Positions 1 to 4,829 of a DNA stretch of 4,829 nucleotides are shown here, piece after piece (the first letter of the stretch is position 1; every line of letters starts with the position of its first letter). Source of the stretch: a virus. Its lineage: Duplodnaviria; Heunggongvirae; Uroviricota; Caudoviricetes. The notes beneath the pieces were generated by a model. It was not told the origin of the DNA and made no database searches. It was given only the letters and a program-made list of their open reading frames with translations. The stretch lies in IMG/VR virus record IMGVR_UViG_2690316099_000010; one strand, written 5' to 3'. A program made the position numbers and the translations under genes.

Positions 1-28
1 ACACTATCAATAAGTTGGAGTCATTACC
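1..28 (+). mobile_element. IS1 terminus (right inverted repeat end), element body lies left of the window
   Basis: Positions 1-28 (ACACTATCAATAAGTTGGAGTCATTACC) match the 3' end of IS1 as I recall it (ending GGAGTCATTACC) and are the perfect reverse complement of 4799-4826. The identity runs to the window edge, so the element is cut by the window. Orientation is from memory of the IS1 convention. Confidence 0.8.
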
Positions 29-437
29 CGTTAAAACATCTGCAGATAATGACGTTGACTTGGATACAGATGGATTCAGACAACTGAGGATATCGTGCCC
101 ATCCCCTTCTGCCAGCGGTGCGATTATATTGAGAAAAGCTTCTTATGAATTCGGCAAAAGTATAGGTGTATTTGATTTTGCAAACAATGCATCACCAGCG
201 ACGATGACATTTTTGNNNNNNNNNNNNNNNNNNNNNNNNNNNNNNNNNNNNNNNNNNNNNNNNNNNNNNNNNNNNNNNNNNNNNNNNNNNNNNNNNNNNN
301 NNNNNNNNNNNNNNNNNNNNNNNNNNNNNNNNNNNNNNNNNNNNNNNNNNNNNNNNNNNNNNNNNNNNNNNNNNNNNNNNNNNNNNNNNNNNNNNNNNNN
401 NNNNNNNNNNNNNNNNNNNNNNATTAATGATGATTAA
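29..437 (+). CDS. Hypothetical protein, 5' end interrupted or bounded by IS1; AT-rich, unknown function; interior masked (216-422)
   Basis: The frame is open from the IS1 junction with no stop across 29-215 (62 codons, improbable by chance in ~41% GC DNA), while both other + frames and all three - frames contain stops. The same absolute frame resumes after the mask and stops at TAA 435-437 (end ...INDD). A terminator follows 8 nt downstream. No family recognised. The TTG at 15 in the ORF track lies inside the IS1 repeat and is not a credible start. Confidence 0.3.
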
Positions 438-444
438 TATATAA

Positions 445-469
445 GCCGCCAGAAATTGGCGGTTTTTTT
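445..469 (+). terminator. Rho-independent terminator: 6-bp GC-rich stem (446-451 CCGCCA / 457-462 TGGCGG), 5-nt loop GAAAT, then T7 run 463-469
   Basis: Hairpin and U-tract read directly from the sequence, 8 nt after the stop at 435-437. The A-rich stretch ATATAA immediately upstream allows weak function in the opposite direction too. Confidence 0.6.
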
Positions 470-474
470 ATAGT

Positions 475-478
475 GGAG
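475..478 (+). promoter_or_regulatory. Shine-Dalgarno (GGAG) for the CDS starting at 484
   Basis: GGAG sits 5 nt upstream of ATG 484. Confidence 0.55.
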
Positions 479-483
479 ACAGT

Positions 484-2013
484 ATGGACTTACCTTCTTT
501 ACCTTCTCTTTCTTCACTCTTTTCTGCATCTTCAGGTATCAATTGGCGCGATAATCTTTACGACGCTTCATTTCGTGGCGTTCCGTTTTCGGTGGAGAGC
601 GACGAGGGTTCGTTCGGACGCCGCGTTCAGGTCCATGAATACCCAAACCGTGACAAACCGTACACGGAAGATCTCGGGCGTGCCACGCGACGGCTGACGA
701 TTAATGCGTATCTCGTTGGTGATGATTACGCAGAGCAGCGCGACAGGCTGATTACAGCGATTGAAACCGCCGGGCCGGGGACGCTGATCCATCCGCAGTT
801 CGGTGAAATGCAGGGCTGTATTGACGGGCAGGTGACCGTTTCTCACTCCGGCACTGAAGGCCGTATGTGCCGGGTTTCATTTCAGTTTGTTGAGAGCGGG
901 GAACTGTCATTTCCGGTCGCCGGAGCTGCAACCGCCAGAAAACTGGAGGAGTCGTCCGTATTCCTGGATGAGTTGATTGAAGACATGTTCGGCGATTTTG
1001 ATCTCGCGGGAATACCGGACTTTATTCAGAACGATGTTATTGCCCGGACGACCGATATGCTGGGAACCGTTCAGACAGCTTTCAAAATGGTTAATTCGGC
1101 TGTTTCTGCCGGAGCGAGACTACTGCAGGGCGATTTATCCGTCATTCTGATGCCGCCGTCGGTTGCCAGTGATTTTGTGCATACGTTGCAGGATACCTGG
1201 CGGGCCGGAACCNNNNNNNNNNNNNNNNNNNNNNNNNNNNNNNNNNNNNNNNNNNNNNNNNNNNNNNNNNNNNNNNNNNNNNNNNNNNNNNNNNNNNNNN
1301 NNNNNNNNNNNNNNNNNNNNNNNNNNNNNNNNNNNNNNNNNNNNNNNNNNNNNNNNNNNNNNNNNNNNNNNNNNNNNNNNNNNNNNNNNNNNNNNNNNNN
1401 NNNNNNNNNNNNNNNNNNNNNNNNNNNNNNNNNNNNNNNNNNNNNNNNNNNNNNNNNNNNNNNNNNNNNNNNNNNNNNNNNNNNNNNNNNNNNNNNNNNN
1501 NNNNNNNNNNNNNNNNNNNNNNNNNNNNNNNNNNNNNNNNNNNNNNNNNNNNNNNNNNNNNNNNNNNNNNNNNNNNNNNNNNNNNNNNNNNNNNNNNNTG
1601 GTGGTTCCACTGAACGTCAGTCCGATATTATTCACGTTTCTCATCCGGCACTTGACAGCGTGGCAGCCAGCACAGGACAGGATGAGAGAGCGCAACCACC
1701 CACGCGGGAAAATCTCACCATCATACGCGAATCGCTGAACGCGGCGATTGAACAGGAGCTCAGGCGTACGGCGGATGACAGGCTGTTTTTTCAGCTGACG
1801 TCATTACGTACAGAACTGAACCGGGATATTCAGGCGCGTCTGGTTCAGACGGAGGAAACCGCAGAGCGAACGCCAGCGGAAGTTCTGCCTGCGCTTGTTC
1901 TGGCTGCGTCATGGTACGACGATGCGTCCCGTGAAACTGATATCCTGGATCGAAATGCCATCTCTCATCCGGGCTTTGTTCCGGTCAGGGCATTAAGGGT
2001 ACCCGTCAGATGA
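484..2013 (+). CDS. Phage Mu gp43 (N)-like DNA circulation protein / tail-associated protein; interior masked (1213-1598)
   Basis: 509-codon frame with a good RBS. The N-terminal region (INWRDNLYDASFRGVPF...GRRVQVHEYPNRDKPYTEDLGRATRR...YLVGDDY) matches the conserved motifs I recall for the DNA-circulation N-terminal family. The visible N- and C-terminal parts lie in the same absolute frame either side of the mask, and the stop TGA 2011-2013 overlaps the next start (ATGA). Size is close to Mu N (about 490 aa). Confidence 0.8.
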   Translation: MDLPSLPSLSSLFSASSGINWRDNLYDASFRGVPFSVESDEGSFGRRVQVHEYPNRDKPYTEDLGRATRRLTINAYLVGDDYAEQRDRLITAIETAGPGTLIHPQFGEMQGCIDGQVTVSHSGTEGRMCRVSFQFVESGELSFPVAGAATARKLEESSVFLDELIEDMFGDFDLAGIPDFIQNDVIARTTDMLGTVQTAFKMVNSAVSAGARLLQGDLSVILMPPSVASDFVHTLQDTWRAGTXXXXXXXXXXXXXXXXXXXXXXXXXXXXXXXXXXXXXXXXXXXXXXXXXXXXXXXXXXXXXXXXXXXXXXXXXXXXXXXXXXXXXXXXXXXXXXXXXXXXXXXXXXXXXXXXXXXXXXXXXXXXXXXXXGGSTERQSDIIHVSHPALDSVAASTGQDERAQPPTRENLTIIRESLNAAIEQELRRTADDRLFFQLTSLRTELNRDIQARLVQTEETAERTPAEVLPALVLAASWYDDASRETDILDRNAISHPGFVPVRALRVPVR

Positions 2014-3086
2014 ATGATACCGTTTTACTTCGGGTTTCCGGTCGCGAATGGGGCGGCTGGACATCCGTCCGTATCAGTGCGGGCATTAACCGTATTGCCC
2101 GGGATTTTAATGTTGCCATTACCACCCGCTGGCCCGGAAGCCGGGATTATCAACCCCGGATAAAAAATGGTGAGCTGGTTGAAGTGCTTATCGGGGATGA
2201 GCCTGTGCTCACCGGATATGTGGAGGCACTACCGCTTCGTTATGACGCCAGCAGCGTCAGCATGGGAATTGTCGGGCGAAGCAAAACAGCCGATCTGGTT
2301 GACTGCTCTGCTTTGCCACTCCAGCAGAGCGGAAAAAACCTGCTCAGAATAGTCAGTGAACTGGCTGCGCCATTTGGCATCACCGTTGTTGATGCTGGCG
2401 TGCCGCAGACAGCGGTGATTGATGCCCAGCCGGAACACGGCGAAACCGTTGCCGATTGTCTTAACCGGTTACTGGGGCAGGTTCAGACGCTGGCTTATGA
2501 CGATGAATGCGGGCGACTGGTTCTGGGAAAACCCGGAACAGGTAAAGCGGCGACGGCGCTGGTGCTGGGAGAGAATATTCTTTCCTGTGACACGGAAAGA
2601 AGCATCAGAGAGCGGTTTTCTGAATATCAGGTCAGTGGGCAGCGCCCGGGCAACGACGATGATTTTGGTGAGGCCACCATTGCCGCAATACGTCAGACCA
2701 TTCAGGACAGTGGCGTGACCCGTTATCGCCCTTTGTTGATTCAGCAGTCAGGCACAGCAACGACAGCAACCTGTAAGGCCCGTTGTGAATTTGAAGCGCG
2801 CCAACGGGCTGCGCTTACCCGTGAGACAACATATACGGTTCAGGGCTGGCGGCAGGGCAGTGGCGCGTTATGGCGTCCGGGGTTATCTGTCATCGTTTTC
2901 GACCCGCTGAATAATTTTGATAATGATGAACTGGTGATCGCAGAAGTTACCTATAACCAGGACGACCGGGGCACGACGACTGAATTACGGGTTGGCCCGG
3001 CAGATGCTTATCTCCCCGAGCCTGTTACCGCCAGGAAGAAAAAAATGTTGAGGAGGATTTCTGATGAACGGGTTTTCTCTTCGTAA
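2010..3086 (+). CDS. Phage Mu gp44 (P)-like baseplate hub protein (late control D-type tail protein family)
   Basis: Uninterrupted 358-codon frame, fully visible. The ATG overlaps the upstream stop in an ATGA, which indicates translational coupling. Size and position immediately after the N homolog fit Mu gene order. Family call is from remembered similarity and synteny, not a search. Confidence 0.75.
   Translation: MNDTVLLRVSGREWGGWTSVRISAGINRIARDFNVAITTRWPGSRDYQPRIKNGELVEVLIGDEPVLTGYVEALPLRYDASSVSMGIVGRSKTADLVDCSALPLQQSGKNLLRIVSELAAPFGITVVDAGVPQTAVIDAQPEHGETVADCLNRLLGQVQTLAYDDECGRLVLGKPGTGKAATALVLGENILSCDTERSIRERFSEYQVSGQRPGNDDDFGEATIAAIRQTIQDSGVTRYRPLLIQQSGTATTATCKARCEFEARQRAALTRETTYTVQGWRQGSGALWRPGLSVIVFDPLNNFDNDELVIAEVTYNQDDRGTTTELRVGPADAYLPEPVTARKKKMLRRISDERVFSS
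3051..3056 (+). promoter_or_regulatory. Shine-Dalgarno (AGGAGG) for the CDS starting at 3064
   Basis: Perfect AGGAGG sits 7 nt upstream of ATG 3064, inside the 3' end of the preceding gene. Confidence 0.65.
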
Positions 3087-3165
3087 TCTGATTTCCCGGG
3101 CTGTCATCACGGCGGTGGATTCCGCCAGAAAGTGTCAGTCTGTAGGGTTGAAAATGATAGCCGGA
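3064..3165 (+). CDS. Phage baseplate assembly protein V / Mu gp45-like spike protein, 5' portion only; 3' end lost in masked region
   Basis: Strong RBS, ATG at 3064, and an N-terminus (MNGFSLRNLISRAVITAVDSARKCQSVGLKMIAG) resembling the gpV-family start pattern. Position after the P homolog fits Mu-like order. Only 34 codons are visible; the ORF-track length of 447 aa is an artefact of translating N. Confidence 0.55.
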
Positions 3166-3801
3166 NNNNNNNNNNNNNNNNNNNNNNNNNNNNNNNNNNN
3201 NNNNNNNNNNNNNNNNNNNNNNNNNNNNNNNNNNNNNNNNNNNNNNNNNNNNNNNNNNNNNNNNNNNNNNNNNNNNNNNNNNNNNNNNNNNNNNNNNNNN
3301 NNNNNNNNNNNNNNNNNNNNNNNNNNNNNNNNNNNNNNNNNNNNNNNNNNNNNNNNNNNNNNNNNNNNNNNNNNNNNNNNNNNNNNNNNNNNNNNNNNNN
3401 NNNNNNNNNNNNNNNNNNNNNNNNNNNNNNNNNNNNNNNNNNNNNNNNNNNNNNNNNNNNNNNNNNNNNNNNNNNNNNNNNNNNNNNNNNNNNNNNNNNN
3501 NNNNNNNNNNNNNNNNNNNNNNNNNNNNNNNNNNNNNNNNNNNNNNNNNNNNNNNNNNNNNNNNNNNNNNNNNNNNNNNNNNNNNNNNNNNNNNNNNNNN
3601 NNNNNNNNNNNNNNNNNNNNNNNNNNNNNNNNNNNNNNNNNNNNNNNNNNNNNNNNNNNNNNNNNNNNNNNNNNNNNNNNNNNNNNNNNNNNNNNNNNNN
3701 NNNNNNNNNNNNNNNNNNNNNNNNNNNNNNNNNNNNNNNNNNNNNNNNNNNNNNNNNNNNNNNNNNNNNNNNNNNNNNNNNNNNNNNNNNNNNNNNNNNN
3801 N

Positions 3802-3938
3802 GCTGTGATTATTTCGCTTTTTACATGGCGGCGTGCCGGGCGTGATGATGCACCACGGATATTTGGATGGTGGGGGGATACCTGGCCTGCGGTTCAGAAT
3901 GATCGCACGGGGTCGCGTTTGTATCTGTTGCGACGCAG
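3802..3938 (+). CDS. Phage GP46-family baseplate protein (Mu gp46-like), internal fragment between two masked blocks
   Basis: The visible frame AVIISLFTWRRAGRDDAPRIFGWWGDTWPAVQNDRTGSRLYLLRR carries the GWWGD ... GSRL(W/Y)LL motif I associate with the GP46 family, and sits in the expected position between the gpV-like and J-like genes. Both ends are masked. Confidence 0.5.
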
Positions 3939-4375
3939 NNNNNNNNNNNNNNNNNNNNNNNNNNNNNNNNNNNNNNNNNNNNNNNNNNNNNNNNNNNNNN
4001 NNNNNNNNNNNNNNNNNNNNNNNNNNNNNNNNNNNNNNNNNNNNNNNNNNNNNNNNNNNNNNNNNNNNNNNNNNNNNNNNNNNNNNNNNNNNNNNNNNNN
4101 NNNNNNNNNNNNNNNNNNNNNNNNNNNNNNNNNNNNNNNNNNNNNNNNNNNNNNNNNNNNNNNNNNNNNNNNNNNNNNNNNNNNNNNNNNNNNNNNNNNN
4201 NNNNNNNNNNNNNNNNNNNNNNNNNNNNNNNNNNNNNNNNNNNNNNNNNNNNNNNNNNNNNNNNNNNNNNNNNNNNNNNNNNNNNNNNNNNNNNNNNNNN
4301 NNNNNNNNNNNNNNNNNNNNNNNNNNNNNNNNNNNNNNNNNNNNNNNNNNNNNNNNNNNNNNNNNNNNNNNNNNT

Positions 4376-4798
4376 CTTGCCAGAAATCTGTTACCGGACG
4401 TGTGTGATGAAGACTGGCTGTACCGGCACGCCAGAATCAAACGCTGCCCGCGAAAAGAAGCGGTGGCAGCCCGGGGATTTGTGCGCTGGGATGGCGTAGA
4501 GGGGACGCCGGTATTGCCAGCGGGAACGCAGATCCAGCGTGATAATCAGGTGACCTTTACCACGACGGCGACGGTGACCGCAGCCGATGGTCTTCTCCGG
4601 GTGCCTGTTGTGGCAGACGAACCGGGATCGGCGGGGAATACGGATGATGGTATTGCCATGCAACTGGGAACACCCGTCAGTGGTCTGCCGTCCACAGGGT
4701 ACGCTGACACCATTACAGACGGTGAAGATATTGAAAATCTGGAAATATGGCGTGCCCGCGTTATGGAACGTTATTACTACATTCCACAGGGGGGCGCA
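4376..4798 (+). pseudogene. Baseplate J-like protein (Mu gp47 family), 5' end in masked region, coding frame interrupted by IS1 at 4798/4799
   Basis: This frame (phase of 4376) is not in the ORF track because it has no stop inside the window. It translates without stops to ...RKEAVAARGFVRWDGVEGTPVLPAGTQIQRDNQVTFTTTATVTAADGLLRVPVVADEPGSAGNTDDG...TDGEDIENLEIWRARVMERYYYIPQGGA, matching the Baseplate_J pattern as I recall it. The frame then runs straight into the IS1 terminal repeat, and the expected C-terminal third is absent. Confidence 0.7.
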
Positions 4799-4829
4799 GG
4801 TAATGACTCCAACTTATTGATAGTGTTTT
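4799..4829 (-). mobile_element. IS1 terminus (right inverted repeat end, reverse orientation), element body lies right of the window
   Basis: 4799-4826 (GGTAATGACTCCAACTTATTGATAGTGT) is the perfect reverse complement of 1-28 and matches the IS1 end as recalled. The following TTT is consistent with continuation into IS1 (TTTATG...). Confidence 0.8.

Follow-up and report, generated by a model that had tools for sequence, protein, structure and literature searches.

An open reading frame beside IS1 in a Shigella prophage is very probably the dead remnant of a moron for a predicted exported beta-barrel protein

What is the AT-rich open reading frame (ORF) that lies between an end of the insertion sequence IS1 and the tail genes of viral record IMGVR_UViG_2690316099_000010, and does it still encode a protein? 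The stretch of this Caudoviricetes record analysed here, referred to as the window, comprises 4,829 nucleotides (nt), and the frame occupies positions 29-437. An earlier note, made from the letters of the partly masked window, regarded the frame as an entire gene wedged between IS1 and the tail module, in a setting typical of accessory cargo. The results presented here indicate that positions 29-437 are very probably the dead 3' three-quarters of a prophage moron that was split by IS1 and whose small product is predicted to be an exported beta-barrel. Accessory cargo is the right description of the ancestral intact gene, but the copy in the window is its cut-off 3' part.

The features first read from the window itself are genuine. 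Positions 29-215 have a guanine plus cytosine (GC) content of 41.2%, versus 53.4% (484-1212), 54.6% (1599-3165) and 57.3% (4375-4798) in the tail genes. Across 29-215 every frame except + frame 2 contains at least one stop, and the ORF ends at a stop codon (435-437) followed by a strong terminator-like hairpin and T-run at 443-465. The adjoining element is indeed IS1; positions 1-28 are an IS1 end, and in the unmasked source the element extends without a break to its full 768 bp. Copies of the IS1 terminus bound the window as a perfect 28-nt inverted repeat (1-28 versus 4799-4826), and the genes between the two IS1 ends are those of a Mu-like tail and baseplate, encoding a DNA circularization (gpN-like) protein and gpP-, gp45-, gp46- and gp47-like proteins.

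The unmasked source loci were reached through an exact look-up of the gpP-like protein, whose gene (window 2010-3083) is fully unmasked, and ten loci were obtained. In six of the ten (L003, L004, L005, L008, L010 and L012) each of the five unmasked segments of the window is found without a mismatch, and the two IS1 junctions are among the matched sequence. The real length of the window in these six loci is 4465 nt, versus 4829 nt as presented. The masks exceed the sequence that they hide, and ORF lengths read across them are therefore inflated (Table 1). The argument that 207 masked positions, a multiple of three, are compatible with a continuous frame was an artefact of masking, whereas the continuity itself is real: the 180 real nt are in frame and the hidden part contains neither a stop nor a frameshift. 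The unmasked frame has 126 sense codons, and the probability of encountering no stop at this composition is approximately 4e-5, so the open frame is not due to chance. Instead of the roughly 136 residues expected from the masked sequence, 126 residues follow the IS1 junction, or 131 when counted from a TTG in the IS1 end.

The unmasked loci also reveal that the frame is not an entire gene but codons 35-160 of a 160-codon gene. In L005 (record HE616528.1, the S. sonnei 53G chromosome) the gene begins at position 3307 and continues as far as AACGTTAAAAC, where a 768-bp IS1 (3417-4184) with InsA and InsB Pfam domains cuts the 483-nt sequence after codon 34-37. The gene then resumes with the second copy of the 9-bp duplication CGTTAAAAC, which corresponds to window 29-37; window position 29 aligns to nucleotide 102 of the intact gene. 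When IS1 and one copy of CGTTAAAAC are removed in silico, the gene that results is 483 nt long and does not differ from the E. coli allele in L001, and an uninterrupted 160-codon gene of the same sequence is present in L007, L011 and L024. Since excision restores an identical allele, the IS1 event is a simple and recent transposition. The insertion was seen in eight of the ten sampled loci, and in 9 of 17 when all loci are considered. E. coli genomes hold the 29-437 segment at 98-100% identity without the IS1 junction, and an exact search of GTDB representative genomes for the IS1/gene junction gave no match. As in other genes disrupted by IS1 in Shigella prophages, a 768-bp IS1 flanked by a 9-bp duplication lies in an AT-rich target and is one of several IS hits. 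No difference from such cases was found, and the event is a textbook simple insertion. In L003 (GCA_000268045.1), two InsB-type ORFs one IS1 length apart are located between the 5' and 3' gene fragments (2531-4184), as would be expected if this site held two IS1 copies in tandem or had been misassembled.

The insertion separated the fragment from the signals of its parent gene. The GTG start codon, the GGAG ribosome-binding site and residues 1-34, including the signal peptide, are located beyond IS1, outside the window. The insB stop codon (window 11-13) is out of frame with the downstream ORF, and there is no in-frame fusion to InsB. The sole upstream in-frame start for the fragment is the TTG inside the IS1 end, at window position 15. 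No Shine-Dalgarno sequence was seen before this TTG on reading the window sequence, and no sigma-70-like promoter was found in window 1-700. Given the loss of the start codon, Shine-Dalgarno sequence and signal peptide, together with the lack of an InsB fusion and of a credible new start, window 29-437 is almost certainly a recent pseudogene remnant that is still identical to intact alleles of E. coli and Shigella.

It could be argued that the fragment nonetheless yields a working product, for instance a shortened protein that stays in the cytoplasm and is produced by readthrough from IS1 or from an outward promoter. Its frame is intact and identical to that of functional alleles, the TTG is in frame and the terminator has been kept. 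Such expression is highly improbable. In addition to the missing promoter-like and Shine-Dalgarno sequences and the InsB stop in another frame, the fragment has only half of the N-terminal helix and no signal peptide, and a periplasmic barrel dependent on a disulfide, as predicted for the intact protein (see below), would neither fold nor act in the cytoplasm. The sequence identity merely reflects how recently IS1 was inserted. The window copy is nothing unusual, being what IS1 has left of a prophage moron that is catalogued but uncharacterised. It matters little and should be annotated as a pseudogene fragment; it is no candidate for a toxin, immunity or defence function.

The prophage that contains this remnant is a decaying Mu-like-tail prophage of Shigella; cluster members carry the labels Shigella sonnei and Shigella flexneri. 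A second complete IS1 (L005 8582-9367) is inverted relative to the first and interrupts the baseplate J gene, where it is flanked by a separate duplication, GGGGGCGCA. As the two IS1 copies are each bordered by a matching target duplication of their own, an origin of the IS1-flanked segment as a composite transposon was rejected. The window is the DNA between two independent IS1 insertions in a prophage that is riddled by IS1.

The intact gene fits the published definition of a moron, for which gp15 of phage HK97 serves as an example (PMC3594210): it is extra DNA between otherwise adjacent genes, with a deviant GC content and its own terminator. The 483-nt gene, whose product is named in RefSeq as WP_000594909.1, hypothetical protein, lies between the tape-measure and gpN-like genes in L001, L002, L007, L011, L024-L028 and L030. 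The cassette is 581 bp long with 36.9% GC (31% at third codon positions, GC3), versus 52-55% in the flanking genes. When E. coli genomes were queried for its presence or absence with 1.7 kb spanning the end of the tape-measure gene, the gene itself and the start of gpN, 11 genomes contained the cassette and approximately 40 had flanks that were 93-97% identical but 581 nt closer, with no cassette. At the empty site in L022, only 15 nt separate the tape-measure stop from the gpN start. The same slot is kept by relatives of 45-50% identity in phage vB_EcoM-720R4, a Yersinia prophage, metagenomic contigs and an IncF-plasmid prophage, and the five divergent members found in it have a gene GC content of 34-40%, versus 47-57% in their flanks. 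An equivalent of the terminator is present 3' of the homologues in L013, L014, L016 and L018, and was read by eye in L019. The intact gene is under purifying selection, with ratios of nonsynonymous to synonymous substitution rates (dN/dS) of 0.09 versus the Yersinia homologue and 0.18 versus that of phage 720R4. The intact gene thus agrees with the published definition of a moron in all but the promoter, for which no convincing candidate was found. The terminator of the moron stands just before the gpN start (Table 1), inside the presumed late tail operon, and late transcription must therefore read through the hairpin.

The fixed position of the gene inside the tail operon of many phages, and the tight packing of the L019 gene against the tape-measure gene, could also be expected of a true tail or baseplate assembly component. 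There is very little chance that the intact gene is such a component rather than accessory cargo, given that some 40 prophages whose flanking tail genes are 93-97% identical lack it entirely. A signal peptide, a deviant GC content and a dedicated terminator likewise argue against a part in tail assembly, as do relatives that reside on plasmid-like elements outside tail operons. The empty sites led us to reject a structural tail gene. A reading as non-coding RNA was rejected as well, since the Rfam matches are only sub-threshold and are centred on the terminator hairpin. These matches, at L005 4516-4601, are to RcsR1, sroD and the Phe leader, and are considered chance.

The intact protein belongs to a catalogued family, although the earlier note could assign none. 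Residues 1-160 match positions 1-161 of the PHROG 5586 profile (E 9.7e-89 for the full-length, intact allele), and the window fragment corresponds to residues 35-160. PHROG 5586 is without an assigned function, and the window copy differs from WP_000594909.1 in being truncated by IS1; no literature was found on either of these two identifiers. The family is tiny. Among 1.84 billion cluster representatives, all scanned with HMMER, 15 members were identified at E <= 1e-3; searching 5.8 billion proteins with a profile brought no further relatives, and a scan of viral contigs with the single protein found seven loci, all of close relatives. The named members are from E. coli, Shigella, Yersinia and Pantoea, and the family is restricted to the Enterobacterales. 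The most distant members (28-31% identity; L018 and L021) are encoded on plasmid-like or phage-plasmid-like contigs, outside tail operons, and their neighbours encode ParA, a CI/LexA-type repressor, IncFII RepA and PemIK. The earlier suggestion of a toxin, immunity or defence gene found no backing, as no hidden Markov model (HMM) of these kinds matches; the PADLOC-DB defence HMMs gave 0 families at E up to 10. Pfam gave no match either to the query, with E values as high as 10 allowed, or to 13 family members, with a limit of 1; NCBIfam gave no match, and a sequence profile search of the PDB returned only noise (E >= 0.29).

All full-length relatives have a Sec signal peptide at the N-terminus in the alignment, and the intact product is predicted to be exported. 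Most members have a signal-peptidase I site of the form A-x-A|K, without a cysteine at this position. Members of the E. coli, Shigella and Yersinia subclade contain a lipobox-like L-T/I-S-C (MIKPFLMTVAILTSC), which fits L-x-[GAS]-C. The Yersinia homologue in L014 (5880-6060) is annotated from MMLISCC. Translation from ATG-AAAAAA-CCT further upstream would give the signal peptide of a canonical lipoprotein (MKKPIYLCLMMLISC), although this reading is one base out of frame at the A-run. Possible reasons are a frameshift, an error in sequencing and phase variation.

The alignment further shows that C57, G64, Y73, G80, F116 and C150 are invariant or nearly so. AlphaFold2 with an alignment of 12 sequences gave a confident model with a predicted local distance difference test (pLDDT) score of 84.9 and a predicted template modelling (pTM) score of 0.78, in which a helix (24-41) is followed by eight beta-strands; with a single sequence as input the pLDDT was only 36.5. 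The mature protein of approximately 140 residues is accordingly modelled as an N-terminal helix and an eight-stranded up-and-down beta-barrel, a predicted fold of the calycin-like class. In the model C57 follows strand 1 and C150 is in strand 8. Because strands 1 and 8 are neighbours in a closed barrel, the two cysteines are suggested to form a periplasmic, barrel-closing disulfide. Foldseek searches of BFVD and the PDB found no structural match at E <= 0.001.

What might such a protein do? We tentatively propose, by analogy with the HK97 gp15 moron, that the intact moron encodes an envelope-level binding or blocking protein that would act in lysogens, with superinfection exclusion the role to be favoured among those of this type. 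The mature protein would bind or block a target at the periplasm or outer membrane, and could thereby act against phages with related contractile tails. The step hindered might be the crossing of the envelope, in which the tape-measure and gpN proteins take part after injection. In favour of expression by lysogens, distant family members are found beside parA and a CI-like repressor. In a more specific and rather speculative form of this proposal, PHROG 5586 would be an undescribed periplasmic exclusion factor for Mu-like contractile tails, trapping or obstructing the tape-measure or gpN protein once it is injected, and the fixed slot between the genes for these two proteins would reflect co-evolution with its targets. 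Should that doubtful version be correct, inactivation by IS1 in S. sonnei removed a phage-resistance function.

Several known systems can be compared with the intact moron. The HK97 gp15 moron was reportedly described by Juhala et al. in 2000 and by Cumby et al. in 2012. The gp15 gene adjoins the tape-measure gene, and the exclusion it confers depends on the tail of the incoming phage (PMC3594210). Both morons are small genes of deviant GC content that lie in the tail operon beside the tape-measure gene, are missing from related phages and encode envelope products. The two share no sequence similarity. Whereas gp15 is a small inner-membrane protein related to YebO and its slot is upstream of the tape-measure gene, the moron described here is downstream and encodes a barrel of approximately 140 residues predicted to be Sec-exported and possibly lipidated. 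Exclusion has been demonstrated for gp15 but is hypothesised here, where no promoter was identified. Cor (phi80/N15), Llp (T5) and Ltp (TP-J34) are likewise small exported or lipidated prophage proteins that are encoded near tail or receptor-binding genes and act at the envelope; none has a sequence match or a significant structural match to the intact moron protein. Cor, Llp and Ltp block a specific outer-membrane receptor or the tape-measure protein.

Several observations weigh against an exclusion factor that acts at the envelope of lysogens. The lipobox is not conserved across the family, and neither sequences nor profiles connect the protein with an exclusion, immunity or inhibitor family that has been characterised. 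There is also no consensus sigma-70 promoter in the 67-nt leader upstream of the intact gene, and the L019 gene starts just 16 nt past the tape-measure stop. The missing consensus promoter and the tight packing in L019 leave autonomous expression from a repressed prophage unproven. The upstream regions of family members are not conserved.

The main rival is that the intact protein is a moron of host fitness or virulence, a periplasmic or outer-membrane barrel that binds or inhibits a host-derived or environmental molecule. It could, for example, be a lysozyme or protease inhibitor or bind a small ligand, and the Shigella copy would still be a dead remnant. Such a role appears possible but somewhat unlikely. 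A lysozyme inhibitor of the MliC/PliC type (PF09864) was considered and rejected: no member has a Pfam MliC match, and hhalign gave a profile-profile probability of 0.06% against a profile of solved MliC/PliC sequences. An MliC-like 'SASG' motif is present, but its subsequent context differs, as does the cysteine pattern, and the moron family adds an N-terminal helix. Tight linkage to the tape-measure and gpN genes across divergent phages fits a phage-directed role better than one directed at the host. Exclusion at the envelope is the reading that we prefer, with the tentativeness stated above.

The intact family is a modest lead, as a tiny, Enterobacterales-restricted group of morons, predicted to encode exported beta-barrels, at the tape-measure/gpN junction of Mu-like tail modules. 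If periplasmic exclusion of contractile-tail phages proved to be true, the family would be a new protein type among the few envelope-level exclusion mechanisms. The tape-measure/gpN junction would then also be marked as a cargo hotspot, this slot being occupied in one relative by a gene with a HIRAN domain. In that relative (L020 2387-2974) the HIRAN-domain gene (PF08797) lies between the tape-measure gene and a distant family member, and the tape-measure-proximal junction may be a general hotspot for cargo in these tail modules.

Table 1. Positions of the features and masks in the window, with the real lengths found in the unmasked loci
Feature	Window position	Strand	Length in window	Real length	Remarks
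IS1 right end (terminal inverted repeat of complete 768-bp IS1)	1..28	+			Continuous with L005 3417-4184, InsA/InsB Pfam domains
Target-site duplication CGTTAAAAC	29..37	.	9 bp		L005 3408-3416 = 4185-4193; second copy left of IS1, outside the window
Moron 3' remnant, codons 35-160 and stop	29..437	+		382 nt	100% identical to L001 8001-8382 and L005 4185-4566
Mask 1	216-422		207	180 nt	
Rho-independent terminator of the moron cassette	443..472	+			GC-rich 10-pair hairpin and T-run; the gpN-like start codon follows after 12 nt
DNA circularization protein gene (Mu gpN-like, PF07157)	484..2013	+	509 codons shown	463 codons	Mask inflation
Mask 2	1213-1598		386	248 nt	
Mask 3	3166-3801		636	500 nt	
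Mask 4	3939-4374		436	373 nt	
Second IS1, inverted (end at 4799-4829), with its own 9-bp duplication GGGGGCGCA (4790-4798)	4790..4829	-			Interrupts the baseplate J/gp47 gene

Decay is also evident in related E. coli prophages. In L001, which contains the intact moron, the tail sheath gene is split by the IS4-family element ISEc60 (2307-5107), so this E. coli prophage is defective as well. In L023 (E. coli FDAARGOS_1077; 2375-2575) the gpN-like gene follows almost directly after the major capsid gene, which implies a deletion of the block of head-completion, sheath, tube and tape-measure genes up to just upstream of gpN.
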